This document shows, piece by piece, positions 2,475-62,562 of a stretch of 64,000 bases of DNA. This DNA comes from Shigella phage B2. The stretch lies in sequence record OM858838; one strand, given 5' to 3'. The notes under the pieces are model-generated. The model was not told the DNA's origin, searched no databases, and saw only the letters and a list, made by a program, of their open reading frames with translations. Each line of letters begins with the position of its first letter. The first letter of the stretch is position 1. The position numbers and the translations under genes are program-made.

Positions 2475-2879
2475 ATGTTCAAGATTCGGAAAGCTATACG
2501 TGATGTAGCGAACGCTAAGTACCCTAGAAAGCTCTCAATGAGTTTGGCTAGTAATATGCCCCTGTCTAATCATCGATGCCATTACAACGCTGTACAGGCT
2601 GTCAAAAATGATATGGCTGTAGGCGTGATAGAAGTAGTCATTATTTATGATGACACTTGTAGTGTTCACTTCGTGAATCTCATGGCTGATGGCTCAGTAG
2701 TTGATTACACATTGGGATTGATGTGCATTGACGATGATTATCGTTTTGTACGTCATGTATCTCCTAATGAGTATGACTCCATTAATCGTGCTCTGATGGA
2801 TGCTAAGCATAAGCTTCATGCTGAAACTCCTTGGCATATCAGAAAGTTAATTAAACTGTCCAAACAGGACTGGTGTTAA
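2475..2879 (+). CDS. hypothetical protein
   Basis: GGAG SD 6 nt upstream; tightly packed in operon. Confidence 0.5.
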   Translation: MFKIRKAIRDVANAKYPRKLSMSLASNMPLSNHRCHYNAVQAVKNDMAVGVIEVVIIYDDTCSVHFVNLMADGSVVDYTLGLMCIDDDYRFVRHVSPNEYDSINRALMDAKHKLHAETPWHIRKLIKLSKQDWC

Positions 2880-3694
2880 CCATGAAAGAGCAAGAACAAC
2901 TCAGGAAAGATATTTCCCGTATCTTTTCTATCTTTAAAGCCAGTGAATGTGAGTTACGTCCTCATTTTATTCTGACTGGCGAAAGTGGTACTGGAAAAAC
3001 CTTTTTAATTAAGTCTCTGGCTGACCAGCATAAGATGGATTACATCGAAATTAATGCTGCTCAGTTAACCAAAGAAGGCTTATCGGGTAATAGCTTAAGT
3101 AAGGCATTAGCTCCTCTTCGCCAAGCCAATGGTAATCCTGTCATCTGCTTTGTAGATGAATTCGATAAGTTATTTATCGCGGGTAACAACAATAGTGAAT
3201 TGGCTCATGAGTCTACTAATGGAGTTCAGAATGAATTCCTTAAGATTCTTGAATCTGATTGTACTTCGGTATTTGGCGACTATGGCAAGTATGTAGACGT
3301 TCCTGTTAGTAACGTTCTATTCGTATTTGCTGGAGCATTTAATGGAGAACCAGATATCACTCTGGATAAACTCCGTACCTTTGGTGTTAAGACTGAATTC
3401 TTAGGTCGTGTTGGTTTGGTATACAACACAGTGAAAGTCAGTCTGGAAACACTAATCAAAATCCTGAAAGACTCCAAAACTCTCGCTATGTATCTGGACT
3501 TGTTTCCAGAGGTTAAGCGCGAGAAAGCTGTTTCAGATATCTCTGCATTTATCAGAGATAACTATGAAATGAACACTCTGGGTATTCGTATGGTTAATAC
3601 GTTAATTACTCAGTACTTCATTCAAGATGGCAAACTTACCCGTGAAGAAGTTAAGTCTAGTACTTTCCAAAATAAACTTAAATTTGGTGAGTAG
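2873..3694 (+). CDS. ClpX/HslU-like AAA+ ATPase lacking the N-terminal zinc domain
   Basis: Walker A GESGTGKT, Walker B ICFVDEFDK; overall resemblance to the ClpX ATPase core (…AAQLTKEGLSGNSL…, …GVQNEFLKILES). Confidence 0.65.
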   Translation: MLTMKEQEQLRKDISRIFSIFKASECELRPHFILTGESGTGKTFLIKSLADQHKMDYIEINAAQLTKEGLSGNSLSKALAPLRQANGNPVICFVDEFDKLFIAGNNNSELAHESTNGVQNEFLKILESDCTSVFGDYGKYVDVPVSNVLFVFAGAFNGEPDITLDKLRTFGVKTEFLGRVGLVYNTVKVSLETLIKILKDSKTLAMYLDLFPEVKREKAVSDISAFIRDNYEMNTLGIRMVNTLITQYFIQDGKLTREEVKSSTFQNKLKFGE

Positions 3695-3695
3695 T

Positions 3696-3830
3696 ATGTC
3701 TAAACATCCTATCGCTTGGGATATCTTTCGTATCCCTGCAAAACTCGTCTGTCGAACCAAGAAGAACCATGTAGCCAATATTGCTCGTAGCAATGGCTTC
3801 AGAGTGATTCCTGTGTTCGGTAGAGGTTAA
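3696..3830 (+). CDS. small hypothetical protein (44 aa)
   Basis: short ORF with ATG 2 nt after upstream stop; weak. Confidence 0.3.
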   Translation: MSKHPIAWDIFRIPAKLVCRTKKNHVANIARSNGFRVIPVFGRG

Positions 3831-3853
3831 AGCCCCTTCGGGGCTTGCTTTGG
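3831..3853 (+). promoter_or_regulatory. TTC-triloop hairpin (agcccc-TTC-ggggct) followed by TGCTTTGG; candidate hairpin promoter or processing site
   Basis: 6-bp perfect stem, 3-nt loop, no T-run; same architecture recurs at 6112 and 52104. Confidence 0.4.
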
Positions 3854-3928: not shown

Positions 3929-5371
3929 ATGGCTAAGACTCTTGAGCAAGATGAAAAGAAAGTACACGTTGCTGAAATCGTTCGTCACGGCGAAAAACTG
4001 ATTGTGCCGGAAGGCATGTCTCTGAGCGATGTTATCGACCTCGCTAAACGTCGCATGAAGTTCGAAGAAGAAGAAGTTCTGGTACGTCGTACCTATAACG
4101 TATTCCCATGGGATGGTGCTCATGCTCTGATGCTGGCACTGACCGAACGTTATGGCTGGGCTGCTGCTGAAGCAACTCCTGGTTTCTTCGGCTCCAATCC
4201 TCCGCAAATGCTGGATGTGCAGGTCGGCTATGGCAAAACCAAAAAAGTTCCATGGGGACGTTTCTCTCTGCCACAGGTAGATGGTTTTGTTCAGTGTTCT
4301 GCACAGAAGAAAGATGGTCGTATCAGCTTCGAACTGGTCGGTAAAGTCCTGCGTAAAGACGAAAAGACTATCGAACTGCTGTTTGATACCGTTGAGCAAA
4401 CTCTGCGTACCAACTCCATTTACATGGGTCAGGCTATCAAAATCCGTTTCCGCGATAACGATGGCGACCTGCTGGAAATGCCGGAACCAGAATTCATGGA
4501 CCTGCGTGGTATCAGCCGTGATTCTCTGGTTTATTCTGACGATGTTCAGAACCTGATTGAAACCAACCTGTTTACGCCGATTGAGCGTGTTGCTGACTGT
4601 ATCGCTAACGATATGCCGGTTAAACGTGGCGTTCTGCTGGGTGGACCATACGGTACTGGTAAAACTATGGCTGCAACTGTTGCTGCTGCTCTGGCTACCA
4701 ACGTGGGTGTTACCTACGTATACGTACCGCGTTCTGATGAACTGTCTGATGCAATTCAGTTTGCTAAGCAGTACAGCGATAAAGCCTGCGTAATCTTCTG
4801 TGAAGATATCGACCGTGCCGTATCCGGTGAACGTAGCGTGAAGATGGACGATATCCTGAACATTCTGGATGGTATCGACACCAAAACTTCTCGCATCATC
4901 ACCGTTCTGACCACCAACCATCTGGAAAACATCAACCCAGCAATGCTGCGTCCGGGCCGTCTGGATGCAATCATCGATGTTACTGCGCCTGATGCGAAAG
5001 CTGTTGAAAAACTGGTTCGCCTGTATGGTCGTGACACCATCGCTGCTGATGCAGACCTGACTCTGGTCGGTGAAGCTCTGGCTGGTACTATTCCTGCGGT
5101 AATCGCGGAAGTTGTTAAGCGTGCGAAACTGCACCAGCTTCAGTATCAAGAAGCAGGTACTCTGATTGAAGAAATCAGCGGTCAAGCTCTGCTGGATTCC
5201 GCTCTGACTATTCAGGCACAGCGTAAGCTGCTGGAAGAACAGTCCAAGCCGAAAGTTAAAGAACCAACCTTCAACGAAACTATCGCTGCTGCTGTTGCTC
5301 CGGCAATTGCTGAAGCTGTAGGTAAAGTTGCTGGTCAGGTTTCTGAACTGCACGAACGTATCGTCGGCTAA
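3929..5371 (+). CDS. classic-clade AAA+ ATPase, codon-optimised (highly expressed)
   Basis: Walker A GGPYGTGKT, Walker B VIFCEDID, second region of homology with RPGRLD; strong host-like optimal codon usage (CTG, CGT, GGT, AAA) distinct from neighbours. Confidence 0.85.
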   Translation: MAKTLEQDEKKVHVAEIVRHGEKLIVPEGMSLSDVIDLAKRRMKFEEEEVLVRRTYNVFPWDGAHALMLALTERYGWAAAEATPGFFGSNPPQMLDVQVGYGKTKKVPWGRFSLPQVDGFVQCSAQKKDGRISFELVGKVLRKDEKTIELLFDTVEQTLRTNSIYMGQAIKIRFRDNDGDLLEMPEPEFMDLRGISRDSLVYSDDVQNLIETNLFTPIERVADCIANDMPVKRGVLLGGPYGTGKTMAATVAAALATNVGVTYVYVPRSDELSDAIQFAKQYSDKACVIFCEDIDRAVSGERSVKMDDILNILDGIDTKTSRIITVLTTNHLENINPAMLRPGRLDAIIDVTAPDAKAVEKLVRLYGRDTIAADADLTLVGEALAGTIPAVIAEVVKRAKLHQLQYQEAGTLIEEISGQALLDSALTIQAQRKLLEEQSKPKVKEPTFNETIAAAVAPAIAEAVGKVAGQVSELHERIVG

Positions 5372-5434
5372 CCGCCAGTAGTACTTGGATAGCCCTTCAA
5401 TGAGGGGCTATTCCAGTTATCACTGGAGGTAATC

Positions 5435-6112
5435 ATGAAGAATCTTTACCAGAAGATTGATGGAAGCCAATACAACCGAATCTTCGTTGTAGGAGATTTA
5501 CATGGTTGCTTTGATGAATTCCAAAAAGAGATGTGGGCTGTTCAGTTTAATGCTGAAACAGACTTAATCATCTCTGTAGGTGATTTAATTGACCGTGGTT
5601 CACAGAATGTGAATTGCTTACGTCTGTTAAATGAACCTTGGTTTAAAGCTGTTCTGGGTAATCATGAAGTAATGGCACTCAATGCCTTATCTTCTGAACC
5701 TTCTTCTGAAGAAGGGGATTTAGCATATTACAATTGGTTCCGTAATGGAGGCATTTGGATTATGGATATTCCTGAAGAACAGAAACCAGAAGTATTAGAA
5801 TTATTTACTCAGGTAGCAGAACTGCCTGGTATCATTGAAGTCTCAGTAGGTGACAAGACTATTGTTATCTGCCATGCAGACTACCCTTCAAATCAGTATC
5901 AATTCGATAAACCAGTTGATGAGGAAACTCTTATCTGGGGTAGAGAGCGTATAGCTCAAAACCAAAATGGAGAAGGTACTGTCATTCAAGGTGCTGACGA
6001 ATTCTACTTCGGTCACACACCTGCCAAAGACCCTATGCAATTTCATAACCAACATTACATTGATACCGGAGCAGTATTCGGTGGTCGATTAACATTGGTT
6101 CAAATCAAATAA
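5435..6112 (+). CDS. PPP-family Ser/Thr protein phosphatase (metallophosphoesterase)
   Basis: GDLHG, GDLIDRG and GNHE signature motifs in canonical order; GGAGG SD. Confidence 0.85.
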   Translation: MKNLYQKIDGSQYNRIFVVGDLHGCFDEFQKEMWAVQFNAETDLIISVGDLIDRGSQNVNCLRLLNEPWFKAVLGNHEVMALNALSSEPSSEEGDLAYYNWFRNGGIWIMDIPEEQKPEVLELFTQVAELPGIIEVSVGDKTIVICHADYPSNQYQFDKPVDEETLIWGRERIAQNQNGEGTVIQGADEFYFGHTPAKDPMQFHNQHYIDTGAVFGGRLTLVQIK

Positions 6113-6134
6113 CTGCCTTCGGCAGTTGCTTTGG
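6112..6134 (+). promoter_or_regulatory. TTC-triloop hairpin (actgcc-TTC-ggcagt) followed by TGCTTTGG
   Basis: 6-bp stem, 3-nt loop, overlaps stop codon of phosphatase gene; identical downstream octamer to hairpin at 3831. Confidence 0.4.
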
Positions 6135-6164
6135 TTACTCTTCACATCTGCATAGGTGCTCAAT

Positions 6165-6470
6165 ATGAAAATCCAAAAATTCGGTACTATCAATTTCACT
6201 GACTCCCTCAACTTGCCAATATTCTCGGGGTTCACTTTTAGTATTGAGAGTGAATCTGAACAGAGTATGACTCAAGATAAAAAGCTTAAAACTTTAATAA
6301 TGGTAACGGCTATCCGTGACCACTTAAGTAAAGTAGTTAAGTTTATTGAGGAAGATATCAGTAAAGCTTCTCTAAGAGATTCTGGGGACTTTTCTACTCC
6401 TGTAGGTAAAAGTACTAAGTCACCTGAAGAAATCGTCTCAGAGAGCCTCTCACGAATCATGGCTAAGTAG
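6165..6470 (+). CDS. hypothetical protein
   Basis: ORF with AGGTG SD; ATG at 6165 preferred over GTG at 6156. Confidence 0.5.
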   Translation: MKIQKFGTINFTDSLNLPIFSGFTFSIESESEQSMTQDKKLKTLIMVTAIRDHLSKVVKFIEEDISKASLRDSGDFSTPVGKSTKSPEEIVSESLSRIMAK

Positions 6471-8466: not shown

Positions 8467-8711
8467 TGGATATCGCATTTGTAGTATCAAAAGTAATTGT
8501 TACAGAGTACACACTGCTTAGGCAGTGGTGGCCTGAACAGTTACGCGAGTCTAGATATGTCGATACAGATATGACTAGAACCTACTTCTTAGATAGACTT
8601 CCCTCTCCTGAATTGTATGAGCTTATGGATAGGCTTAATGCAGAAGGAAGAACCTATCGATTTATGGACTTAAGAGGAGTGGACTCAGAAGATGCGTCAC
8701 ATAATCTTTGA
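8466..8711 (+). CDS. hypothetical protein
   Basis: ORF with ATG overlapping upstream stop. Confidence 0.45.
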   Translation: MDIAFVVSKVIVTEYTLLRQWWPEQLRESRYVDTDMTRTYFLDRLPSPELYELMDRLNAEGRTYRFMDLRGVDSEDASHNL

Positions 8712-10347
8712 ACAGAACCAAAGATATCCAATAGCAATTCTCATCAAACCACAGCAACTAAAGAAGCGTGAGTTACAGGAAGCGTATATCGACCCTACTG
8801 GAATCAAGCCAAAGCAATTCATTGCATTTGACCTTGAGTACAATGGTAAGAAAGCTCCTGTATCTATGCAGAAAGACTATCTTAAAGACCTGTTACCAGA
8901 GCTATGCAACTTAAGAACAGAGTATGTTCTATGTTGCGATAGTGCTTACTTCAAGACTCTAACCAAGCAAACCAAAGCAGAACCTCATTATGGTTATGTA
9001 TTGCCTTGTGCTATTGCTGGTTTCGAGCACTTGAATATTATCTTTTGTCCTAACTATGCTCAGATTTTCTATGACCCATCAGTTCAGGATAAAGTCGATT
9101 TAGCACTTAAAGCATTGGTAGATAAAGTGAATGGGCAATACCAAGAGATTGGTAAGGATATTATTCATTCTGCTTATTACCCTTCAACAGTTGAAGACAT
9201 TGAAGCTTGGCTTGAATCTCTTCATCAATATCCAGTATTGGCGTCAGATATTGAGGCATTTAGCCTCAAATTCTATACAGCAGGTGTAGGTACTATTGGT
9301 TTTGCATGGGACCAACACAATGGAGGAGCATTCGCTGTTGATTACACGAATGAACCAGACAAGGCTAATAGGATAAGGCAGGCTCTTAAGAAGTTCTTTG
9401 AAACTTATAAAGGCAAACTGATTTGGCATAACGCTAGTTATGACTTAACAGTGCTTATCCATCAGCTTTGGATGAAAGGTCTAATAGACCAGAAAGGACT
9501 GCTTAAGGGGTTGCATATTATGTGTCGTGATTTTCACGATACTAAGATTGTAACTTATCTGGCTACAAACTCTTGTGCAGGTAATGAATTGGGACTGAAA
9601 GCTCAGGCTCATGAATTTGCTGGCAACTATGCACAAGAAGATATTAATGACATTACTAAGATTCCTCTTCCAGAGTTACTGGAATACAACTTAGTTGACT
9701 GTTTAAGCACTTGGTATGTTGCAGACAAACATGCAGATACTATGGTGCTGGATGAACAGTGGGAAATCTATAATGACCTAATGTTACCTTCGCTGAAGAA
9801 TATTATTCAGATGCAATTAACTGGTATGCCTATTGATATGGCAGAAGTTAAGAAGGTTAAAATAGAGATGACTAAAGAGCGTGATGGATATCTCAATGCT
9901 ATCCGTTCATTTGCTGTAGTAGATTTACTAGTTCATAACTTGCGTGAACAACATGTAGCTACTCGTAATGCTGCCCTTAAAACCAAGCAAATTACAATGT
10001 CTGATGATGAGACATTAAAAATAGAGTTTAATCCAAACTCTAACCCTCAGATGCAAGAACTCTTGTATGAGATTATGGGATTACCTGTAATCGATTATAC
10101 CGAATCTAAACAACCTGCTACTGGAGCAGATACTTTAGATAAGTTAATTAACCATACAACAGATGACCGTCAGAAAAAGATACTCGAATGCCTTATTAAG
10201 TATTCTAAGGTAGAGAAGATTTTATCTGCATTCATCCCTGCATTTGAAGAAGCACCTTTAGCCGAAGATGGTAACTACTATCTGTTCGGTAGCTATAACT
10301 TAGGTGGTACTGTATCCGGTCGTTTGAGTTCATCAAAGCCTAAATAA
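8692..10347 (+). CDS. DNA polymerase I family, N-terminal part (3'-5' exonuclease and palm start), ends inside the conserved GRLSS..PN.QNIP motif
   Basis: exonuclease-like DIEAFSLKFY region; C-terminus …TVSGRLSSSKPK matches the first half of the Pol I motif …TGRLSS.DPNLQNIP. Confidence 0.85.
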   Translation: MRHIIFEQNQRYPIAILIKPQQLKKRELQEAYIDPTGIKPKQFIAFDLEYNGKKAPVSMQKDYLKDLLPELCNLRTEYVLCCDSAYFKTLTKQTKAEPHYGYVLPCAIAGFEHLNIIFCPNYAQIFYDPSVQDKVDLALKALVDKVNGQYQEIGKDIIHSAYYPSTVEDIEAWLESLHQYPVLASDIEAFSLKFYTAGVGTIGFAWDQHNGGAFAVDYTNEPDKANRIRQALKKFFETYKGKLIWHNASYDLTVLIHQLWMKGLIDQKGLLKGLHIMCRDFHDTKIVTYLATNSCAGNELGLKAQAHEFAGNYAQEDINDITKIPLPELLEYNLVDCLSTWYVADKHADTMVLDEQWEIYNDLMLPSLKNIIQMQLTGMPIDMAEVKKVKIEMTKERDGYLNAIRSFAVVDLLVHNLREQHVATRNAALKTKQITMSDDETLKIEFNPNSNPQMQELLYEIMGLPVIDYTESKQPATGADTLDKLINHTTDDRQKKILECLIKYSKVEKILSAFIPAFEEAPLAEDGNYYLFGSYNLGGTVSGRLSSSKPK

Positions 10348-11053
10348 ATTGGGCTGTTTAAACTTCGTGAATTCGGGGAAAATCCAGAACGGACAATCCC
10401 GAGCCAAGTCAACCAATCATGTCTTAAGAGGCAGAATGGACACTAAAAAATTAGAATATTTATATGAAAACACTTCTTTATCTCAGAAAGAGATTGCTAA
10501 GTGTTTAGGATTAAAATCTGCTAGGGCTGTTCAAAAATATTGTTACAGACACTATACAAGTGCCTATCGTAAAGAAAGGCATTCCAAGCTATTAGCTAAA
10601 GCTAAACTAGGAAGTTTAAACCCTATGTTTGGTAAATCTGGTTTATACCACCCCAGATATCTAGGAGTTGTCTCTGACAACAAAGGGTATTGGATGGTAT
10701 TAAAACCAGAGTGGTATACAGGGCGTAAAAGCAGTAAGCATGTATTTTTACATTCTGTAGTTGTATGTGAACATCTAGGATGGACAGAAATACCGAAAGG
10801 GTATGTAGTTCATCATTGTGATTTTGACCCATCAAATAATGATTTTGATAATTTAGTGGTGCTTACTGTAGCAGAACATATGAGCTTACATGCAGCATTG
10901 AAAGGTGTAACGACTATCTCGAAAGAGAGTACACTCAAGTGGGTGGAAGCGCGAAGGGCTGGTAACAGCCATGATATAGTCTGACCTGTATAGGAATATA
11001 CAGCAGCACTGAATAGTGCGAGTACAGCTTAACGAACTGTACTGAACGTAGTG
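10342..11053 (+). mobile_element. candidate group I intron carrying an HNH homing endonuclease ORF, inserted in the DNA polymerase gene
   Basis: insertion splits a single ultra-conserved motif; proposed 5' exon ends in T (10341), insertion ends in G (11053); joining 10341 to 11054 is in frame and restores SKPNMQQIP. Confidence 0.5.
10436..10984 (+). CDS. HNH homing endonuclease
   Basis: VVHHCDFDPSNNDFDNLVVLTVAEHMSLH HNH motif; GAGG SD before ATG 10436 (track ORF starts further upstream at non-ATG 10349). Confidence 0.8.
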   Translation: MDTKKLEYLYENTSLSQKEIAKCLGLKSARAVQKYCYRHYTSAYRKERHSKLLAKAKLGSLNPMFGKSGLYHPRYLGVVSDNKGYWMVLKPEWYTGRKSSKHVFLHSVVVCEHLGWTEIPKGYVVHHCDFDPSNNDFDNLVVLTVAEHMSLHAALKGVTTISKESTLKWVEARRAGNSHDIV

Positions 11054-11995
11054 AATATGCAACAAATCCCATCCTCTAAGAGTCCTTATGCCAAGCCTAT
11101 TAAGCGATGCTTTAAAGCTGGTAAAGGTTGGCTTCTTATTGGGTTAGACTTTGCATCTCTAGAGGACCGTATTTCAGCTCTGACAACCAAAGACCCCAAT
11201 AAACTTAAAGTTTATACTGATGGGTATGATGGTCATTCTCTCAGAGCATTCGCTTACTTTGGCGACCAAATGCCTGATATTCAGAATACAGTGGATAGTA
11301 TTAATAGTATTCAGGACTTATATAAGGACTTTAGACAAGAATCTAAAGCTCCTACTTTTGCACTTACCTATCAAGGTACTTATCACACATTGATGGCTAA
11401 CTGTGGCTTCCCAGAAGACAAAGCGAAAATGGTTGAAAAGAGGTATCACGAACTCTATTTCGTCTCTGACCAATGGGTAGACGCCAAGTTAGCACAAGCC
11501 AGCAAAGATGGTTATATCACTGCTGCATTCGGATTAAGAATCCGTACTCCATTACTCAAAAATGTTGTCTGGGGAATTAAACAAACACCATATGAAGCCA
11601 AAGCAGAAGGCAGAACTGCTGGTAATGCTTTAGGTCAGTCTTGGTGCTTGTTAAATAACCGAGCAGCAAATGAGTTTATGGAACGTGTATGGAATTCTCC
11701 TTATGCAGATGTAATCAAACCATGCGCTCAAATTCATGATGCTCAGTATTATCTGGTTCCAGATGATATTGATATTGTTCATTGGGTTAATGAGAACTTA
11801 GTTGAGTGTGTTCAATGGCAAGACCATCCCGATATCTATCACGAGGAAGTGAAGTTAGGAGGAGATTTAAGTGTCTTTTACCCATCATGGGCTAATGATA
11901 TCTCCTTAAAGAATGGAGCTTCTAGAGAAGAAATCTTAGATACATGTGAAGTTGGATTGGATAAGTATCTTCACCCGGAGAAATATAAAAAATGA
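11051..11995 (+). CDS. DNA polymerase I family, C-terminal part (fingers/palm with motifs A and C)
   Basis: begins NMQQIP (second half of the split motif), DFASLEDR motif-A-like, QIHDAQYY motif-C-like. Confidence 0.85.
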   Translation: MNMQQIPSSKSPYAKPIKRCFKAGKGWLLIGLDFASLEDRISALTTKDPNKLKVYTDGYDGHSLRAFAYFGDQMPDIQNTVDSINSIQDLYKDFRQESKAPTFALTYQGTYHTLMANCGFPEDKAKMVEKRYHELYFVSDQWVDAKLAQASKDGYITAAFGLRIRTPLLKNVVWGIKQTPYEAKAEGRTAGNALGQSWCLLNNRAANEFMERVWNSPYADVIKPCAQIHDAQYYLVPDDIDIVHWVNENLVECVQWQDHPDIYHEEVKLGGDLSVFYPSWANDISLKNGASREEILDTCEVGLDKYLHPEKYKK

Positions 11996-20190: not shown

Positions 20191-20218
20191 AAGCCCCATC
20201 CTTGGGGCTTTTCTTTTA
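20191..20218. terminator. bidirectional intrinsic terminator between convergent + and - strand genes
   Basis: stem aagcccca/tggggctt flanked by A-run upstream and T-run downstream. Confidence 0.55.
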
Positions 20219-23200
20219 GTACAAACTCACCAGAGGGTGTACTGTAAGTCCATTCAATGCTGTACCCATCCCAACGTTATAACTCAGACTACCAGTTACT
20301 AAGTTGGCTTCAGTAATGTTAGGTAATCCAGATTCAACACTGTTACCAAACATCAGGAACAATGCTCTCAATGGATTCTCTCTAATCGTTCTCAGAATGA
20401 TTTTCTGGATACGAATCTTATAGTTCAGGAACCAAGTTAAACCAATAGCATCCAGATAGAATCTGGTACGACTTGGTAACACATCATAGTTCACGAACTC
20501 ATCCATCACTCTGTTAAGCGCACTGTCTTTATCCATTGGATTACTCTTACGAGTAGTCAAATGTTTATACAATGAATACTTAGCAACAAAGTCACCATAC
20601 TGGATTGAACGGTTCAGTAAGAAGTACACGTTACTATCTCTTGAAAGGGTAACTTCCTTAGCAACACGTTTAACACTATCTGGAATACCAGATGTGTATT
20701 CATCCATCTTATTAAGTAATTTATCTTTCAATGAATAGTTATCTTGCTGTCCTAAATCCTCTGCAATGGTAGGCAGTAAACCTGCTTTGATTAAATCAGC
20801 AACAGGGTTACGAGCCTGAGAATCTTTCAGTTCTGAAATCTTTCTCTGATATTCGTCAGCCATTTTAGGATTATGGTTTACAGCCAGATAGTGAGAATAC
20901 TCGTTAATCAGTTTCTCATTCTTTCTGTACTCCTCAGCAGCCAGTACAGCAGTAGACATATCCTTAGCCATAGTCACAGGGCTTACACCAACAGTAGCTA
21001 AGTGAACCATGTTAGAAACAATGTTCGCTGCTGATACAACTATTGAACGAACTACAATCCAATCCTTCATTTCCTTCACGAATTCCATCAGACCACGTTC
21101 ACCAAGTCTCAGATAGCGAGCAGCATTCTTACCTAAGAAGGTTTCAGCAATGCTGGTGAAAGCTTTCTGGAACTCTTTAGAGTAACCAGTCTGACCAGTC
21201 CACATATTCAGTACAGAAGGTTCACGATAACCAAATGCGTTATTCAGTAAATCCTTACGTACTTTAATCTTACCATCAGGCCAAATCTTCTTAGCTTGTT
21301 CCTTCATCTCAATAGGCATCAGTTCATAAATCTCTTTTAACTGATGGTCTGTAGAGTTCTCATCCATAGTAATGTATTGGTATGCCCTGCCTTCTCTGGC
21401 ATCCTTCACATACATTTCATGGAGTCTCTGGAGCAACATTTCATTGTATCTGGCTGCCTGAATCTCCTCAGCAATACGACCTTCCCAAGCACCGATTACC
21501 TTAGTGAAATCATTATCTACATCCAAATGTGCTTCTTTGTTAGCTCTAGGCATCTGATATGAGTAACCCATAATTGAACCAGCACGATTCAATACAGGTT
21601 GCATATATGAGTTATTGCCAGTAGGCATAGGAGCATTTGCATCAAATAAATTATCAATACTGCTTCTCTTACGAGTAGATAAATTATTCTTCTCAGTAGC
21701 TCTCCATATACCCGGAGTCATAGCACCATTCACAGTTCTACCTGTAATTGGGTTTACTCCACCTACGGTGTTTTGCAGGGTACTCATTACACCAGCAATC
21801 CAACGAGGTTCACCACCATTGTTTGAATGGTAGTAATACATTGGTTCCTTGTTGGTATCCTGTGGGTCACGAGCAACCTGAGCACCTCTGGTATACCCTC
21901 TACGAGATAAGCTTGGTTCATCTTTAATAGATGCAATAATCACTTTCTTGTTAGGGTCTGACAGAGTAGGAGTAAATCCTTTAATCCCAGCTAGTGCTTG
22001 GTTTTGACCAGACTTAGCTAACTCTGCACCCTGCAAGCTTGAATAATATTTGAGAGTGAAAGTCATCCCATTATTATTTGGTTCACCTTTAGTCATCTCT
22101 CTATTAATCAAATTACTTACAGTAGCAATATCAGTCTGAGATAACTCTTTCAGTGCTGCCAGAGAAGCCATAGTATCAACCAATTGAGTAACAGTATTAA
22201 CTGTTGCATCATTAGGTCTAACTCTGCCAGTACCAATTAAACGAGCAATAGCTGCTGCGTTAGGTAACTGATAAGCCAGTGGACTAACTCCATGAACCAT
22301 TTGTTTAGCTAATCCATATGCAGACTTAATATAGAAAGGAGCATTCTGTGCACCTGCTGTCTGCAATTGAGATTCAATAGAAGCAATCTCTTTAGCCAGT
22401 TCAGTTGGATTGGTTAAGAGTTCATTCAGTCGTGCCAAGTCATATCCATTGGCAAACAGATAAGCCATATCAGTATTAGCAACTACTCTCTGAATAGCTT
22501 CTTTCTCTGTTTGGTTCAGGGATACAAATGTACTCTCAATCATACCCGGAACCATCTCACGAATAATCTGACGTGCTCTATCAGCAGCCATATTCTTCTG
22601 AGTCAGTAAGGTATGAATGGTGCTATTGGTTTCGTTAGAACCAATGAACTCATTAATCAGTTCAGCAACAGTACCTAACTTGCCATTCTGGTGAATGGTC
22701 ATATAAATGTTAGTGATAGCATCACGTACATCCTGAGCATCTTGGTCATTGAATACTGCTGAACCAGCAGTGATACCAAATGCTACAGACTTAGGTACTT
22801 TCTTCTCTACCTTGAGTAACTGTCTACGGATAGTGTGACCAAAGGATTTGAGTTTATCCTGAGTAGTATCAGTGATTTTCTCTGCACCTCTAACCAATCT
22901 ACCAAACAGATTGTCTCTGGCTTCACTATCAACATGACTAATATTCTTAGCCAGTTTAGTTAAGCGAGAAGCAACGTCAGTATTACCCAAAGACTTAGTA
23001 GCCAAACCCGATAACCAAGTAAGAATGGCATTGGTTAAATCACCAATACGTTCTCTCAGAGTTGTAGCTGGAGTCTGTCTGGTACGCTTAACACTAATCT
23101 GAGAAAGTTTATTTCTCAGTTGTTCATTGGTTTCTGCCAGTGCAATGAAGTTAGCCAGTCTATTAGTACGACCAGTAGCATCAGTAGTCACAGCAGTGTT

Positions 23201-26200
23201 ACCAAATACAGCATCATATCTTTGTTTAGCTAATGCCATTTCACTAGCTGAACGATTATTAGGGTCAGTTAAGAAGTCTTCTACTTTCAAGGTATCTCTG
23301 GCTTGTGCATACAAACTACGTGCAACCAGAACACTTGGAGAAAAGTTCTCTAAACCATACTTCATAGAAACTTGCAGCATCTTGAATACAAATGCTTCTT
23401 TCTCACTCATGTTAAAACCATGAGCAATCAATGCATTTGGAGAGTTATCAATCTCTGGGTCGATACTATCTACCAGAAGTTTTTCCTGATAATGGTCTAA
23501 ACCAGAGATTTGCTGACCAGTATTCTTAATCACTTTAATGATATTTGACTGGAGATAATCCAGTGTATCAGTCAAATGATTCACATGGTCTTGCGTAGCT
23601 TTACCAGCATCCAGTTTATTAAACAGAGTTTCTGCATCTAATCTATTGATGTTATTAGCATTGGTTTGAGCATAGCTAGTTTCATCATTAGATTTAACCG
23701 GATTAGTAGAGTCAGTTAAAGCAACTGTATGCCCTAACAGACGTGACCAGTAAGAGGTAACATCTGGATTAGAGCCAATAGCAAACAGGCGCTTAATAGA
23801 ATCAGCTAACTGTTTGAGTACATTGGTAACAGTCCCAGCAATAGTCTTCTGAGTCATTGCATCAATCATTCTTGGGTTAACTAATCCCCATGCAATAAAC
23901 TCAGCAGTAGCTTGAGACATATTACCAGAAGCGATATGAGTATTAATCAGGTCTACTACAGCATCAGTTTCTGGATTGGTGCTTGAATATTCATTCACAA
24001 ACTTATTCATCAATCCTTCAATTGAAGCTACTTCTACTCTCTGAGCAGGAGTAATTGCTTCTGGATTGCTGTAATAGTTATGAACAGTATCAGCAGTAGC
24101 AGCATGAATTAACTCATGCATTACTGTCTCAATAGACTGAGAACCAATATAGATGTTCTGGCCTTGTGTAAGACCCAAGAACGTGTCATTAAACTCAACC
24201 TTAGTATCAGGTGTCATTTCCTGTTGAACGCCTGAGAGAGCTTCTGGTGAGCCTACATACACATTAATATCATTAGGGATAGAATTGATAATCTTATCCA
24301 GAATGAAACCAGTGATTCTATTCTGGCGAGAAGGCAGAGATTTAGCTGCCTCTCTTACAGCAGCAACCACATCACCTTTAGCCAGAACTTTAACACCTTC
24401 ATGACCTTTTACAGTTCTACCATTTCTATCCAGAGCCTCAGTCATCTGACGAGTAGGAGGAATGGTTACTCTACCTTTAGGTAGAGATACAGAATCCATA
24501 GTAGGTAATTCAGTATTGGCTACTAACTGTTCCAGAGGAGTTCTGGTATCAGTTGCTTCTCCATCAGTCTGTTTACCATTCTTAACATTGAATGGAATAT
24601 TGGCACCAGTCATCTGGTTAATGGAGGTAATAGCCTCACCACCTAACAGACCTTGTTTAATAGCAGTCTGAGTAGCAGCTTCTCTCTTAAGCAGAGTAGT
24701 GAATGCTTCAACCACTTCTGGACTAGTAGGTGCATTAGTTTCATCAGCACCAATCATTTCCATAATTCCACGGAAAGACTGTTCCAGACGAACATCTGCT
24801 TCTGGACCTAATTCCTCTGCCAGATTCACTCCATCCATTGCTTGCTCAAAACGGTTAGTGAAATCTTGCAGTAAATCGAATTCATTCCAGCTTTGCAGAA
24901 CACCTTGGTTAATAGCCTGAGAACCAGTATCCAAATGAGATACAGCATTGATGTAGCCATCGAATACGTTCAGAGCATTGTTAGGATTGATATCACGAGC
25001 AATAGCCTGCATAGCTGCTTCTACAGACTGAACCAGTAAAGGCATTACACGAGTACCCGGTTCAGTATAAGTAGGCATATCTACACCGAAGGTAGAACGA
25101 CGCATCTTACCATCCAGTTCTCTACGTCCTCTGGATTCCATTCTGTGTACGTCAGATGGAACACGCCCTTCCTCACTCAGAAGAATACCTTCATTCAGCT
25201 TTTCAACATCTAAGTTGTTAGCAGTAAACCAAGAATTGAAGATTGGCATTGAACCAATCAAGTAATTCTTAATGTCGTTGTACTGCTGCTGAGATAGAGA
25301 TTCATATTTAGATAACTTACCTTCTTTACGAAGTTCAGTTTCTAATCTCTCTACTTCTTTATTCCAACGAGACATGAATACTTCATGCATTACAGCAGCA
25401 GCATAGACCATCATCTTGCCACGATTAACTACAGTACCAAATTCATTAGCAATGGATTCGTTTACTGCTGCACCAATACCAATCTTGATGTTCTGAGTAA
25501 TAGCTTCGATTTGTTCACCGTCAAATTCAAACATAGTCACATCCTGACCTAAGTTGATAGGTGAACCAATCTGAACCCAAGAACCATTTCTGAATACCCG
25601 AGCAGTAGTCAGTTCATTAGTTGTATTAGTTAAGTCATTGATGTGTTCAATAGCAGCATCACGTTCTTCCTGATTAGTAGCTGCATCAACTGCTCTCAAT
25701 GCTTCTGTGATTGCTTCGTAATATCCATTAGCAATACCCATAGCAATCTTTCTATTGATTGCAGTAGCACCGCCTGAATAAACAGTTACTGTTACTGGAT
25801 TCTTAAGTAAACCTCGACCAATCTGAATTGGATGGTCTACATTTTCACCTTCAACAATATTCACATCACCAATCAGTTTGGATGCAGCAAGAGTAACCCT
25901 CATCTGATTCTTCAGACGTTCAATTTCACGCATTTCTTTTTGCTGGAATTGACGTGGTTTATTCTTCATTGCAGCAATTCGGTTAGGAATATTTCTAACT
26001 GAATCCATCATTCTATTGATGTATTGCTGACTATCAGCAGCAGCAGTCTTATACAGGTCTAAGAATCCCGGTTCTTCAGCAGCATCATTATACAGACGGT
26101 CAGACTGCCCATAGAAGAAACCGCCCTTCTCCAATTTATTCAGTAAGTCCTGGTTCACATCTTTCAAACCAAGCTGAACAATGGAGTTAAATGGTCCATT

Positions 26201-29200
26201 AGTAACACCATCAAGCTCCAGCATTACATGAGTCTGGAATGAGGTCTTACCTTGTTCTACAGCCAGTTCATATTGAGCCTGTGCATACAGAGCATGGAGA
26301 GTCTTAGTCTTCTCCTTACCTGCTTTAACAGCCTGCAACAAAGTCTCAGCATCACTATCACTGATGGCATCCTGATTCTCAGCAGCTTTAAGGATATCGA
26401 TAGCATCTCTGAACAGACCAGTACTGATAGCTTTATTCAGTCTATCTCTGGCTGTTTCAGAAGACAGCTTATCAACAGCAATATCTAAGCCCTGAGCAAT
26501 TGCATAATCAAGGAATGCACCATGCTGAGGGTTATTCAGTTCAATGGTAGATGGTTCAACAGTAACCAGTTCACGATGTAATTTAGCTGACTGAGGATTC
26601 AGGTCACCAGAGTTAAGCATCATACGGAAGTTACTGATTACGTTATAACCAAAGTAAACAGGAGTGGTAGCCAAAGGTAATCCAGCTTCAACCATTCTAG
26701 TTAAACCATTAACCAGAGTATTTATATCTCTTTCAATGGTACGGTTAGAACCCTGAATAGATTTCAGGTGAGCACCGTTAGTATTCTCTTCTGACTGAAT
26801 GCCTAACATTCTACCAATCCACTGAGTACCTAACTTATCAAGCATCAGGTCATGCAGACCCATGTTAATGAAGTGAGGTTGTTTGCTAGCTTTGTTACGA
26901 GCAGCAAGCATCTTCTCAGGGATATCCTGACCACCACCATTCTTAACTTTAGTGCTTTGACCTTTTGGTGGAGTACCAAAGTATGCACCTGCTCTTTCTC
27001 TCTGAGGATTAGTCAGTTGACCTAACAGGTCATTAGAATTCTGCATCAATTCTACTAAACGAGTAGCAGCAGGAGACTCTTCATTCATACGAATGAATAC
27101 ACGAGAGTTCTTCATGTTTGAGTCATTTACTTTAGTAGAACCAACAGCAGCTAATTCAGAGTTTTTAACAACTGATTCCTGAACCAGATTAGCATTAATC
27201 ATTACGTTCAATACTTCAGATGCCATTGCTTTAGACACAGCATCACGTACAGAGATAGGTGCATTAGGGTCTGCATTGATACCTAATACTCCAAAGATTT
27301 CTCTGCTTAAATCATCAATAACATTCTGACGGTCAGTACCAACGTTACGCAGTAAGTCAGTCTGTTCTACAGTTGGCCTAGTCTTGTTATCTAAACCAAG
27401 AATATCCATTACTGTACGGTCATCATTGAATGTAGTTTCAGATGCATTACGTACAAACCACTGCATCATTCCAGCAGTCATTGCTTCAATTACTGGCTGC
27501 GGTAAGAAGTAAACATTCTCACCATTGATGTTTCTAACTTCATCAAAGTACTCAACAGGATAAGTTTCCCAGAAGATACGCTGACCTTCAGGAGTTAATT
27601 TACCCCAAGACTGAATCAGAGATTGTTCAATAGCAGGGACTAAACCAGCAAACTGACGAAGTACATTTACTTCTTTCTCAGTTACTTGTTCTGGTTTGAT
27701 ATAACCTTTAAACAGATTCTGAATCTGAGTAATAGGATTAGAACCATTAGTAAAGATGCTATTAAGTCTCCCAGAGAAATTAGAAGTTCTCAGGAAAGCT
27801 GAACGTTTACCGGTAGGTTTAAACCATTTCTTAACTTGGTTTGTAGCTTGATATTCTTTATCTACATCAGAAGTAGACTTAGCATCAGAGCGTATTGTCT
27901 CTGCTTGCAGTCCATTCAGAATGTCATAGTTAACACCTTTCTCTGAACCAAGGTCTAATTGAGACTCATCCATCAGGTCAGTTTCTACATCAGTAGGTTT
28001 TTCCTGTAACTGGATATCAGATTCTACAGTATCTGGTTTCTCAAACAGTTCACCCTGTACAGGTTCAGTACGTACAGCTTCCTCAGACGCTACTGGCTGA
28101 GTTATTTCAGGCTGTACTGGTGTTTGTACCTCTTCCTGAGAAGTCTGCTCAGAAGTCTCTACAGGAGCTTCTACAGTAGTCTGCTGAGATACAGGTTGAG
28201 GGAAAGTATTCCTGACGTGGTTCAGGAAATCAGTACGTGCCTGAGAAGGTGTAGCCCATACTTCACGAGTACTACGTAAACTGAAGATATGCCCATCTGG
28301 TGTCATAACGTAAGGTACATTAGTGTCACCATAATTAAAGGAAGACAGAACATCCTGTTTACCAGTAACTGTGTCCTCTCCAGGAATAATAGTAGTTTTA
28401 CCACCATTAACCGGAACGGCACGAATACCCCCCATGTCTTTACCAATAGCAATATAGTCTTTGCCATTATAGGTAAAGTACTGACCTAACTGCATATACA
28501 GTGCCTGCTGCTGTCCAGTAAATTCAGCAGATTTCATCTCAGGACCGGCAGGGATACCACTAGAAGTAGTCTGCTGAGGAGCTGGTTTAGTTTCTTTTTT
28601 AACAGGTGCAGATTCCTGAGTCTGGTTGTTCACTTCTTCAGAAGCAACAGGAGCAGACTGTGCAGGGATATCTACAGGTTTACCATCTACCAGTTGACTG
28701 GTAAGGGTATGAGCCAGTCTTACTGCATCAGCATCATTACGAATCTCTTGGATTAATCCTTTAGAACGTACCGGATGGTACGTCATTGGATTTCCATCGA
28801 GAGACAGGTATGGCTGACCAGTAGTAGGATTAATTACTTCTACAGGTTGATTTCCAGTAAAGTTCTGAGCAGCTTGGTCAAAGGCAGCAGCCTTAGTTTC
28901 CATATGTTCAGCAAAGCGATTCAGGTGGTCTAACAGACCCTGAGCACGAGCAGTATCACCTAATGATAATGCACGGAAGATACCTTGCTGATATTGCTGG
29001 ATACCAATAAAGCCATCCGAACCTTCACGTACATCTTTACCTACTTGGCTCATAGCCTTACCAGTAGCAGAGATGACCTTAAGTTTATCCACATCCTGCT
29101 GACTTAAACCAAGAGTATCAGCAGAGTTAACTAAACGGTCAGCTACATCTGGAGTAATAGAAGATGCATCTAAGTTCATCTGAGCCAGAACAGATTTAAC

Positions 29201-44218: not shown

Positions 44219-44238
44219 TTCTTACGAAAGAATATACA

Positions 44239-52103: not shown

Positions 52104-52126
52104 AGCACCTTCGGTGCTCTCTTTGG
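52104..52126 (+). promoter_or_regulatory. TTC-triloop hairpin (agcacc-TTC-ggtgct) followed by CTCTTTGG, upstream of tRNA cluster
   Basis: 6-bp stem, 3-nt loop; third copy of hairpin plus TTTGG architecture. Confidence 0.4.
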
Positions 52127-52134: not shown

Positions 52135-52209
52135 GGTTCTATGGTCCAGTGGAAAGGATATTCCCCTGTCACGGGAAAGGCCCGAGTTCAATTCTCGGTA
52201 GAACCGCCA
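52135..52209 (+). tRNA. tRNA-Asp (anticodon GTC), CCA encoded
   Basis: hand-folded cloverleaf: acceptor ggttcta/tagaacc, anticodon loop CTGTCAC, T-arm ccgag-TTCAATT-ctcgg. Confidence 0.8.
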
Positions 52210-52213
52210 ATTA

Positions 52214-52288
52214 CAGGATATAGCTCAAGTTGGTTAGAGCACTCGGCTCATAACCGAGAGTGTCCAGGTTCGAAACCGGGTGGAACCA
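52214..52288 (+). tRNA. tRNA-like, anticodon CAT (Met or Ile2); acceptor stem does not pair by hand-folding, possible pseudo-tRNA
   Basis: canonical D-arm tagctcaagttggttagagca and anticodon arm ctcgg-CTCATAA-ccgag, T-loop TTCGAAA. Confidence 0.4.
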
Positions 52289-52298
52289 CCAAATAATG

Positions 52299-52383
52299 AA
52301 GAGAGTCGTATAGCGGCCCAATACGCCACCCGAACGTTACGACTAGTACGGAGAACACGCAGGTTCGAATCCTGCCTCTCTTC
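52299..52383 (+). tRNA. type II tRNA-like element, anticodon unresolved
   Basis: acceptor aagagag/ctctctt, perfect T-arm gcagg-TTCGAAT-cctgc, 85 nt; anticodon arm not foldable by eye. Confidence 0.35.
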
Positions 52384-52389
52384 ACAAAT

Positions 52390-52463
52390 TGTCTCATAGC
52401 TCAGTAGGTCAGAGCGTTCCCCTGATAAGGGAAAGGTCACTAGTTCGATTCCAATTGAGACAA
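52390..52463 (+). tRNA. tRNA-Ile (anticodon GAT)
   Basis: acceptor tgtctca/tgagaca, D-arm, anticodon loop CTGATAA; T-stem has two mismatches. Confidence 0.55.
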
Positions 52464-52605
52464 CCATCCAATAGATTACAGTTCGTATCTCTTAGGGGAA
52501 TACACTTGTAATTGCGGCCCGATAGGAAAGGGTAATTTCTCGACGATGGGAGTAGACCATTGACTGTTTGGAATAGACAACTGACGCTGTGAACGAGAAC
52601 AGGAA

Positions 52606-52692
52606 CAAGATGAGTCGTATAATAGGCAAATACAATATTCATGTTTCGCTATAGGCATGGAGAAGGAACGTGAGTTCGAGTCTCACCTCATC
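52606..52692 (+). tRNA. type II tRNA-like element, anticodon unresolved (paralogue of 52299 element)
   Basis: acceptor agatgag/ctcatca, T-arm gtgag-TTCGAGT-ctcac; shares 5' tcgtat…atac D-arm with 52299 element. Confidence 0.35.
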
Positions 52693-52794
52693 AATAGTTC
52701 TTATCAGGGATTACTTACTACTATATATCATACATTACCTCGCCTGGTGTGTTGGTGTTACCTCGGTAGATAAGTAATCCACTAATAAGAATTT

Positions 52795-52880
52795 GGAAGA
52801 TTCCGCTCAGTGGTGGGCAATCCGGTTTGAACCCGGAGGTGCTGGTAACGGTAGGGGTTCGACTCCTCAATCTTCCGCCA
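52795..52880 (+). tRNA. tRNA-Ser (anticodon TGA), type II, CCA encoded
   Basis: acceptor ggaagat/atcttcc, anticodon arm tccgg-TTTGAAC-ccgga, long variable arm, T-loop TTCGACT. Confidence 0.75.
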
Positions 52881-52886
52881 ATATTT

Positions 52887-52962
52887 GATAGGATAGCTAA
52901 CTCGGTAAAGCGGCAGACTGTTAATCTGCGACATTAGGGTTCAAATCCCTATCCCATCGCCA
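52887..52962 (+). tRNA. tRNA-Asn (anticodon GTT), CCA encoded
   Basis: anticodon arm gcaga-CTGTTAA-tctgc, T-arm taggg-TTCAAAT-cccta. Confidence 0.8.
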
Positions 52963-53127
52963 AACTTGCAGGTAACTCTGCAATCCGTGACCAGTCGGTA
53001 TGTTTATTAGTATGTAAAAGGCTGGGCTTCCTGCCTCTCATAGCCATACTCTTAAATGAATAACTGGTAGTCCAGCCAAGCGCACGAAGATGGGGACCCT
53101 CACCATCGGACAAAACGAGGGTACTAA

Positions 53128-53204
53128 GCATCCTTAGCTCAGTTGGATAGAGCAGTAGCCTTCTAAGCTATTGGTCACTGGTTCGAATCCAGTAGGGTGT
53201 ACCA
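53128..53204 (+). tRNA. tRNA-Arg (anticodon TCT), CCA encoded
   Basis: D-arm gctcagttggatagagc, anticodon loop CTTCTAA, T-arm actgg-TTCGAAT-ccagt. Confidence 0.8.
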
Positions 53205-53205
53205 A

Positions 53206-53281
53206 GCTCACTAAGTTCATATGGGTGAACGCCTGCCTTGTAAGCAGGATGAACGCGGTTCGATTCCGTGGGTGAGCACCA
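53206..53281 (+). tRNA. tRNA-Thr (anticodon TGT), CCA encoded
   Basis: acceptor gctcact/ggtgagc, anticodon arm cctgc-CTTGTAA-gcagg, T-loop TTCGATT. Confidence 0.8.
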
Positions 53282-53283
53282 AT

Positions 53284-53369
53284 GGGAGTATGGTGAAATC
53301 GGTAGACACAAGGGATTTAAAATCCCTCGGCTTATAGCTGTACGAGTTCGAGTCTCGTTACTCCCACCA
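53284..53369 (+). tRNA. tRNA-Leu (anticodon TAA), type II, CCA encoded
   Basis: acceptor gggagta/tactccc, anticodon arm aggga-TTTAAAA-tccct, long variable arm, T-arm acgag-TTCGAGT-ctcgt. Confidence 0.75.
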
Positions 53370-57388: not shown

Positions 57389-57401
57389 GAGTCTTCGACT
57401 C
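57389..57401 (+). promoter_or_regulatory. TTC-triloop hairpin (gagtc-TTC-gactc), candidate vRNAP-type hairpin promoter
   Basis: 5-bp stem, 3-nt loop, followed by TAGTGGAG; upstream of gene at 57447. Confidence 0.4.
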
Positions 57402-58201: not shown

Positions 58202-58231
58202 ACTTACTTCGTAAGTATCTCACTTCGTGAG
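58202..58231 (+). promoter_or_regulatory. tandem pair of TTC-triloop hairpins (acttac-TTC-gtaagt and ctcac-TTC-gtgag)
   Basis: two perfect hairpins 2 nt apart immediately upstream of ORF at 58234. Confidence 0.4.
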
Positions 58232-59483: not shown

Positions 59484-59551
59484 CACCGTCTTCGACGGTG
59501 GTGGAGTTCTCCCTTAAGTTCTCCTTCTCCTGTAAGAGCGACTTCGTCGCT
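59484..59551 (+). promoter_or_regulatory. tandem pair of TTC-triloop hairpins (caccgtc-TTC-gacggtg at 59484-59500; agcgac-TTC-gtcgct at 59537-59551), each followed by GTGGA
   Basis: 7-bp and 6-bp perfect stems with 3-nt loops, 36 nt apart, upstream of codon-optimised gene at 59593. Confidence 0.45.
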
Positions 59552-62015: not shown

Positions 62016-62028
62016 CAGCCTTCGGCTG
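62016..62028 (+). promoter_or_regulatory. TTC-triloop hairpin (cagcc-TTC-ggctg), candidate hairpin promoter
   Basis: 5-bp stem, 3-nt loop, followed by TTCTGGTGAA; upstream of macro-like gene. Confidence 0.4.
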
Positions 62029-62058: not shown

Positions 62059-62562
62059 ATGTTAGAAGCTCGCGGTAATATGCTTGAAATGGAATGTGAT
62101 GCGTTGTGCATTACTACCAATGGATTTGTTAAAAGCAATGGTGCATCAGTTATGGGTGCTGGTATTGCAAAGCAGATGCGAGTAACTATTCCTGGACTGG
62201 ATAAAATTCTAGGTCAGAAGATTGCTCGTGAAGGTAACAATGTTCATTTCTTATTAAATTATAACAATATTGGAATTGTATCCTTCCCTGTTAAACCAAT
62301 AACAGAAATTAGTAATGGTGAGAACTTTGTTAAACATAAGTTCTTCCCTGTAGGTACAACAGTTCCGGGATGGGCATGTAAAGCAAACATCGATTTGATT
62401 GTACGTTCATGCCAGCAACTGGTAGCACTGGCTGACCAATATGGTTGGCAGAAAGTCTTATTACCAAGACCGGGATGTGGTGCTGGTGAGCTTAACTGGA
62501 GCCATGTGAAGAAGGTTATTGAACCTTTGTTAGATGACAGGTTTATCGTCTGCACCTATTGA
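62059..62562 (+). CDS. macro-domain-like protein (possible ADP-ribose binding/hydrolase)
   Basis: N-terminal …DALCITTNGFVKSNGASVMGAGIA… resembles macro-domain Gly-rich ADP-ribose pocket; GAGG SD. Confidence 0.5.
   Translation: MLEARGNMLEMECDALCITTNGFVKSNGASVMGAGIAKQMRVTIPGLDKILGQKIAREGNNVHFLLNYNNIGIVSFPVKPITEISNGENFVKHKFFPVGTTVPGWACKANIDLIVRSCQQLVALADQYGWQKVLLPRPGCGAGELNWSHVKKVIEPLLDDRFIVCTY

Follow-up and report, generated by a model that had tools for sequence, protein, structure and literature searches.

The 64,000-nucleotide (nt) stretch of Shigella phage B2 DNA analysed here (record OM858838; hereafter the window) contains an open reading frame (ORF) at 5435-6112 on the + strand whose product belongs to the PPP/calcineurin-like superfamily and, within it, to the group of lambda protein phosphatase (lambda PPase), the NinI product. 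All sequence and fold comparisons gave this assignment. Taken as a whole, the analysis indicates that the product is very probably an active lambda-type metallophosphatase, encoded by a non-essential accessory gene that was acquired by an ancestor of the lineage, is expressed before replication, and serves to dephosphorylate host proteins.

The family was examined with profiles, alignments, and a predicted fold. An earlier note, made from the letters of the sequence, had proposed a phage-encoded Ser/Thr phosphatase of the PPP family, and its family assignment proved right on each of these counts. The Pfam Metallophos model (PF00149) matched the protein with an E value of 1.7e-15 (58.4 bits, cut-off 21.5), and PHROG 246, "NinI-like serine-threonine phosphatase", matched residues 2-224 with an E value of 1.5e-91. 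The best match among solved structures was the lambda Ser/Thr phosphatase (PDB 1G5B; E 5.1e-70, residues 4-224), and a global alignment with lambda PPase gave 113 identities over 217 aligned positions (52%). An AlphaFold2 model generated from an alignment of 38 homologues had a predicted local distance difference test score (pLDDT) of 94.9 and a predicted template modelling score (pTM) of 0.92. When this model was submitted to Foldseek, the top PDB matches were chains A and B of 1G5B, with template modelling (TM) scores of 0.93-0.96, a root mean square deviation of 1.4-1.6 Å, and 50% identity; the next matches, at a distance, were diadenosine tetraphosphate (Ap4A) hydrolase, the Pnkp phosphatase domain, PP1, PP5, and ApaH.

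The Escherichia coli phosphatases PrpA and PrpB were considered as orthologues and rejected. The NCBIfam models NF008516 (PrpA) and NF007425 (PrpB) matched the protein over its full length with scores of 257.6 (E 1e-76) and 214.5 (E 1e-63), respectively. Because these scores miss the equivalog cut-offs of 326 and 332, the protein is not an orthologue of either and groups with the phage NinI type; lambda PPase itself, at 271.6 and 236.9, likewise fell below both. Three other families were rejected on their scores: ApaH, the symmetrical Ap4A hydrolase (77.5 against a cut-off of 176, the match being confined to residues 16-90), PrpE (51.3 against 340), and Pnkp phosphatase (41.8 against 750).

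The ORF runs uninterrupted from its ATG to a TAA at 6110-6112 (225 codons, 225 amino acids (aa)) and is preceded, 5 nt before the ATG, by the Shine-Dalgarno sequence GGAGG, which was kept in all eight orthologous loci examined. The complete GDxHG/GDxxDRG/GNHE signature described in the earlier note was found as GDLHG (residues 20-24), GDLIDRG (residues 49-55), and GNHE (residues 75-78), together with a GH pair at residues 193-194. For comparison we used the catalytic and metal-binding residues of lambda PPase, which we take to be D20, H22, D49, D52, R53, N75, H76, H139, R162, and H186. In the alignment, D21 and H23 of the first motif corresponded to lambda D20 and H22; D50, D53, and R54 of the second to D49, D52, and R53; N76 and H77 of the third, GNH(E/D), to N75 and H76; and the C-terminal metal ligands H147 and H194 and the second phosphate-binding arginine R170 to H139, H186, and R162. 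All ten residues occupy invariant columns of the 38-sequence alignment. The loss of metal-binding residues on careful alignment, which the earlier note had named as the result that would speak against it, was thus not seen, and every metal ligand and catalytic residue was retained with respect to lambda.

By homology to lambda PPase, the protein would be active on phosphoproteins and dependent on Mn2+. We infer the metal, the timing of expression, the co-transcription, and the physiological substrate. In the proposed mechanism, Asp21, His23, and Asp50 would be the ligands of the first metal, and Asp50, Asn76, His147, and His194 those of the second, Mn2+ being expected at these sites. The phosphate would be bound and positioned by Arg54 and Arg170. 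A metal-bridged hydroxide would then attack the phosphorus directly, and the leaving group would be protonated by His77, oriented by Asp53. Lambda PPase acts broadly on phospho-Ser, phospho-Thr, and phospho-Tyr, and also on phospho-His. The expected outcome here is a broad phosphomonoesterase on proteins carrying phospho-Ser, phospho-Thr, phospho-Tyr, and probably phospho-His, and its likeliest role would be the removal of phosphates from host proteins during take-over of the cell.

The ratio of nonsynonymous to synonymous substitution rates (dN/dS) was calculated by the Nei-Gojobori method for seven orthologues with 60-100% amino-acid identity. It was 0.13-0.22 between genera and 0.08-0.22 when all 21 pairs are taken, dS reaching approximately 1.8; the gene is clearly under purifying selection. 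These values, the retention of all catalytic residues, and the conservation of the Shine-Dalgarno sequence and of the gene position speak against an ORF that has no function, be it a relic in decay or without catalytic activity, or an ORF that arose by chance. In favor of that explanation, to which we give practically no credence, only the general dispensability of the lambda and P1 homologues can be cited.

The closest relatives were found among phages of Salmonella. The 1.6 kb around the gene matched Salmonella phage vB_SenP_UTK0001 at 99.4% identity and FSL SP-058 at 98.9%, in line with the phage origin given in the earlier note, and by sequence the phage is an Ithacavirus (Schitoviridae, Humphriesvirinae), that is, N4-like. 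The protein encoded by vB_SenP_UTK0001 (OQ359891.1) is 100% identical and is labelled "serine/threonine protein phosphatase 1", and the RefSeq name of the SP-058, SP-076, Pollock, Pylas, KpCHEMY26, and TR2 orthologues is "NinI-like serine-threonine phosphatase". Lambda-type phosphatases are common in phages, and the gene was already known, since it, its family, and its exact protein sequence are in GenBank, and its orthologues in RefSeq, under a correct name.

Homologues were detected by tblastn in 1,412 phage records, and in 1,400 of them the match spans at least 80% of the protein; an identity above 60% was reached in only 18 phage records, all from Humphriesvirinae and Triduovirus. In a search of 5.8 billion proteins, the identity stepped from 61-91% (eleven clusters) to 56% or less; the long contigs of the former group measure 63-73 kb, as do the genomes of these phages, and the named proteins in the latter group were from Enterobacteriaceae. 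One of these homologues was looked up and lay within an integrated prophage, adjoining an integrase gene and guaAB. No homologue was found by tblastn (E <= 1) in positions 1-45000 of N4 or in the approximately 9-kb stretches around the AAA+ ATPase gene of Ea9-2, phiEaP-8, and Zuri. Because the gene is missing from the first 45 kb of N4 and from the AAA+ loci of Erskinevirinae and Zurivirus, it can be regarded as a lineage-specific accessory gene. The simplest history would be that an ancestor of Humphriesvirinae and Triduovirus took up a NinI-type gene once, from temperate phages of enterobacteria. Knock-down of lambda ninI and P1 ppp by CRISPR interference (CRISPRi) caused no plating defect after polar effects had been removed, and both genes were classed as non-essential (PMC10695390).

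Several points weigh against the interpretation given above. Relative to lambda PPase, the protein carries a 7-residue acidic, Ser-rich insertion at approximately residues 86-99 (SSEPSSEEGDLAYY), which could alter its specificity; apart from this insertion, the sequence is ordinary. The metal preference and the substrate range are extrapolated from a homologue that is 52% identical. Co-transcription with the AAA+ ATPase gene is deduced from gene order and the flanking hairpins only, and the physiological role of phage lambda-type phosphatases was not defined anywhere in the literature searched. Finally, since lambda PPase is also a phosphodiesterase, hydrolyzing bis-p-nitrophenyl phosphate and nucleoside 2',3'-cyclic phosphates (PMC2190708), activity on phosphoproteins is not the sole possible chemistry.

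This last activity favors an alternative in which the enzyme works on nucleotides or on the ends of nucleic acids. As a 2',3'-cyclic phosphodiesterase and 3'-phosphatase, it would heal RNA (tRNA, for instance) that host anticodon nucleases or toxin RNases have cleaved, or else it would break down a nucleotide that serves as second messenger, or an alarmone of the Ap4A type. The Pnkp phosphatase domain and the ApaH-type Ap4A hydrolases were the next-best structural and sequence relatives, and the phage invests in its tRNA supply with eight tRNA genes. However, the ApaH and Pnkp models matched only short motif segments, far below their cut-offs, and the full-length similarity is with the protein phosphatase group. 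In addition, the annotations inspected, those of the close relatives UTK0001 and FSL SP-058, list no gene for an RNA ligase or a polynucleotide kinase as a partner, and none for a kinase. We regard this alternative as very improbable.

A second alternative concerns the purpose of the enzyme rather than its chemistry. The earlier note had suggested that it reverses host kinase signalling or abortive-infection phosphorylation; in its strong form, the phosphatase would be a dedicated counter-defence enzyme that erases the marks of host Ser/Thr kinases and rescues the infection. The broad specificity of the enzyme class on protein phosphates, by homology, makes such a role possible. Like typical anti-defence cargo, the gene is an accessory one, restricted to a lineage and gained by horizontal transfer. 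Homologues are spread over approximately 1,400 phage records from many virulent and temperate groups, and with the T7 kinase phosphorylation is known to serve the other way round in the conflict between phage and host (PMC13645617). The same paper, however, mentions phosphatase as a reagent only, and the full-text literature searched yielded no paper on a defence-related or other phenotype of any phage PPP phosphatase; what came up was the essentiality data cited above and uses of lambda phosphatase as a reagent. The ninI and ppp knock-downs described above showed no plating defect on laboratory hosts, the protein matched no PADLOC model, the annotations of the relatives contain no kinase gene, and the gene lies among replication genes and not in an early anti-host block. 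Nor is the role specific enough to be deduced from the sequence. A counter-defence function is reasonable but unsupported by the sequence, its context, or the literature searched; we consider it unlikely, and more likely than RNA-end healing or nucleotide hydrolysis.

Two further labels were examined in this connection and set aside. The "phosphofructokinase" label in FSL SP-058 sits on a small ORF of the DUF6378 type and was disregarded. A second "phosphatase" label, SP058_00075, corresponds to an early gene at 62059-62562 (+) in the window and is unrelated to the PPP family. Its product belongs to PHROG 335 and gave a weak, sub-threshold match to the Macro domain (18.6 bits against 22); it may be an ADP-ribose-processing enzyme.

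The gene was then considered in its surroundings (Table 1). The earlier note had placed it in the middle region, and it was indeed located between N4 gp24/25-like genes on one side and a gp37-like helicase and a gp39-like DNA polymerase on the other. The order AAA+ ATPase, phosphatase, two small ORFs, Dda/RecD-like helicase, and family-A DNA polymerase was the same in Ithacavirus, Pollockvirus, Pylasvirus, and Triduovirus, and also in a metagenomic contig of 72.6 kb. The AAA+ ATPase gene, with its stop codon at 5369-5371, is the immediate, co-oriented upstream neighbor, and the two genes are probably co-transcribed; a protease domain was not detected in its 480-aa product. In Erskinevirinae (Ea9-2 and phiEaP-8) and Zurivirus, the ATPase is found at approximately 63% identity and is followed by other genes. 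We propose pre-replicative (middle) expression for the AAA+ ATPase and phosphatase genes, which would form a unit of two genes with a hairpin signal at either end.

Table 1. Location of the phosphatase gene, its signals, and associated features in the window.
Feature	Position	Strand	Basis
Phosphatase coding sequence (lambda-PPase-type, NinI-like binuclear metallophosphatase)	5435-6112	+	Profiles, alignment, predicted fold
Shine-Dalgarno GGAGG of the phosphatase gene	5425-5429	+	Read from the sequence; conserved in 8 orthologous loci
Triloop hairpin at the stop codon, with tail GCTTTGG	6111-6134	+	Fold, compensatory changes, motif scan
AAA+ ATPase, 480 aa, FtsH-like ATPase module	3929-5371	+	Pfam AAA 3e-16, PHROG 10440
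Two-part stem-loop	5371-5430	+	60 nt, -33.5 kcal/mol, z = -5.95
Sister hairpin AAGCCCC-TTC-GGGGCTT, with tail GCTTTGG	3830-3853	+	Motif scan; stem covariation
Early C-TTC-G triloops	57389-57401, 58202-58231 (tandem pair), 59484-59500, 59537-59551, 62016-62028	+	Triloop with GG 11 nt past the loop centre
tRNA cluster	52135-53369	+	Seven by ARAGORN (Asp, Ile, Ser, Asn, Arg, Thr, Leu); an eighth added by Rfam

Between the two genes lies a two-part stem-loop, in which an inner hairpin at 5385-5416 (loop AAU at 5399-5401) is enclosed by an outer stem of 5371-5383 and 5418-5430. Of its 23 consensus pairs in seven phages, four showed compensatory double changes. Because the outer stem pairs the bases just past the ATPase stop codon with most of the phosphatase Shine-Dalgarno sequence, translational coupling is suggested. 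The equivalent structure in Klebsiella phage Pylas is labelled "terminator", and the stem-loop may be a translational-coupling structure, a processing site, or a terminator or attenuator.

At the other end of the gene, the stop codon overlaps a triloop hairpin, as the earlier note had observed, the last two bases of the TAA being the first two positions of the stem. The hairpin, AACTGCC-TTC-GGCAGTT, consists of a perfect 7-bp stem (6111-6117 and 6121-6127) and the loop TTC at 6118-6120. The 56-nt RNA 6095-6150, which contains it, folded with -15.4 kcal/mol (z = -3.95 against shuffles). The hairpin was present in all orthologous loci examined. In the lineage of TR2 and L012 it reads ACCACC-TTC-GGTGGT, with two compensatory stem pairs, and elsewhere the middle base alone of the loop varies (TTC, TCC, or TAC). 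The first G of the GG in the tail is at 6133, 14 nt from the loop centre, and the ATG of the downstream unit is at 6165. A canonical C(UUCG)G tetraloop was tried at this position and rejected, because the register permits a triloop only and C6 and C13 would mismatch; true tetraloop terminators with T-runs occur elsewhere in the window, at 44238 and 60019. At the gathering threshold, Rfam reported tRNAs only, and no family was found at this hairpin or at the 5371-5430 structure.

The hairpin is one of a family. The motif CCTYCGG-N7-YTYGG had three exact copies in the 64-kb sequence, all on the + strand (3830-3853, 6111-6134, and 52104-52126). With one mismatch allowed, four matches were counted where 0.41 were expected, and four was not attained in any of 100 shuffles. 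All copies have a stem of 6-7 bp and a G 14 nt past the loop centre. The copy at 3830-3853 overlaps the stop codon (3828-3830) of a small upstream ORF and lies 76 nt before the ATG of the AAA+ ATPase gene; its stem covaries across genera (CCCC/GGGG, CGCC/GGCG, and CCGCC/GGCGG), and it is a candidate promoter of the AAA+ ATPase-phosphatase unit. The copy at 52104-52126 lies 9 nt before the first of the eight + strand tRNA genes, downstream of a gene on the opposite strand, and FSL SP-058 has the motif at the corresponding position. Neither N4, nor the early region of FSL SP-058, nor the loci searched in Erskinevirinae and Zurivirus contained the motif. Further members of the family were seen at L013:12177-12195 (one mismatch) and L016:36073-36091.

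The hairpin at the phosphatase stop codon could act as a terminator, and a simple terminator consensus scan also flagged it. A role as terminator only is less likely, because its tail is GCTTTGG, with no T-run, and because the same motif precedes the tRNA cluster, where no gene reads into it. We put the chance that it is a hairpin-type promoter for the downstream unit at about even, and that of a terminator-only role somewhat lower; the structure may also double as the 3' end of the AAA+ ATPase-phosphatase transcript. More generally, the CC-TYC-GG family is a candidate for a middle-class hairpin promoter of Humphriesvirinae. A more elaborate scheme can be drawn, in which the AAA+ ATPase and the phosphatase form a translationally coupled module, transcribed from a hairpin-type, non-sigma-70 promoter, that erases a defence-kinase or stress two-component signal which would otherwise abort the infection, and in which the stop-codon hairpin represents an undescribed class of Humphriesvirinae middle promoters that also drives the tRNA cluster. 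We consider this combination, taken as one, quite improbable.

Other features of the window were recorded as well. A second AAA+ ATPase gene, ClpX-like and encoding 273 aa, lies at 2873-3694 (+), close upstream of the one at 3929-5371; both products belong to PHROGs of unknown function. In PADLOC, the AAA+ ATPases resembled the defence proteins IetA and TRIP13 weakly and only in general AAA features, a resemblance that was not treated as meaningful. The family-A DNA polymerase gene is split within 8692-11995 (+) into a part encoding the exonuclease and the N-terminal polymerase (8692-10347) and a part encoding the C-terminal polymerase (11051-11995), between which an ORF for a free-standing HNH endonuclease is found at 10349-10984. 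In UTK0001 and FSL SP-058, the polymerase gene is unbroken (863 aa); a homing endonuclease of the HNH type occurs at a comparable position in Pollock.

The window runs from the middle region through the late genes (with the virion RNA polymerase (vRNAP) gene at 20216-31441 on the minus strand) and the tRNA region to the early region. Since the sequence is circularly permuted with respect to the FSL SP-058 and UTK0001 records, a terminal repeat or the physical ends of the genome would be expected inside the window, near 57.3 kb (junction approximately 57340). In the early region, intergenic C-TTC-G triloops were found with a GG 11 nt past the loop centre, a geometry like that of N4 P1 and P2, and these are probably the early vRNAP promoters of this phage. 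In the tRNA cluster, the eighth tRNA, at 52216-52288, was detected by Rfam (37.7 bits, anticodon loop CAU) and missed by ARAGORN, and the Ser tRNA at 52795-52880 was called by ARAGORN and not listed by Rfam. Several short listed ORFs that overlap tRNAs are probably not genes.

The purpose of a lambda-type phosphatase for any phage is a general and old question, for which this strictly virulent phage offers a clean genetic background. A by-product of this analysis may be more useful. To our knowledge, the middle promoters of N4-like phages beyond N4 and LUZ7 are poorly defined, and the hairpins described here suggest a testable promoter class for the middle genes and the tRNA cluster of Humphriesvirinae.

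Compared with known phosphatases, the protein is most like lambda PPase (NinI/ORF221, 1G5B). Both are single domains of approximately 220 aa that can be aligned from end to end, and both have all metal ligands, the His-Asp pair, and the two phosphate-binding arginines. The lambda gene, however, belongs to the nin region of a temperate siphovirus, whereas the gene studied here lies in the replication-gene block of a virulent N4-like podovirus, adjoins an AAA+ ATPase gene, and encodes its acidic insertion after the helix at residues 76-85. E. coli PrpA (PphA) and PrpB (PphB) belong to the same subfamily and match over the full length, but they are chromosomal, whereas this phosphatase is phage-borne and its closest relatives outside the schitoviruses are prophage or enterobacterial proteins with approximately 50-55% identity. 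The phosphatases of P1 (Ppp), T5-like, rV5-like, and Vibrio phages share PHROG 246 with it; they are less than 60% identical, and those of Humphriesvirinae and Triduovirus form a discrete schitovirus clade.

The stop-codon hairpin can be compared with the promoters of N4 and LUZ7. In N4 early promoters, a loop of the form 5'-G...A-3' and a G:C closing pair are needed for hairpin extrusion and stability (PMC4496689). The features of N4-family hairpins, namely a template-strand hairpin with a 5-7 bp stem, a 3-nt loop with 5' G and 3' A, and G:C closing (PMC4496689), were all found at 6111-6134. The template strand of 6111-6127 reads AACTGCC-GAA-GGCAGTT, with the loop 5'-GAA-3' and C:G closing, and the loops of relatives are GGA and GTA only. 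Two of these three loops, GAA and GGA, are those of the N4 template hairpins P1 (GTTGC-GAA-GCAAC) and P2 (AGAAGC-GGA-GCTTCT), which are also closed by C:G. In contrast, the determinants of N4 vRNAP (-8G, and a template +1C 11 nt from the loop centre) were lacking: template position -8 is C, where N4 vRNAP recognizes G, and the spacing is 14 nt instead of 11. The hairpin also belongs to the middle region, where it directly adjoins a stop codon. Its spacing agrees with that of the early and middle hairpin promoters of LUZ7, at which transcription starts 13-15 nt from the loop centre (PMC9163698).

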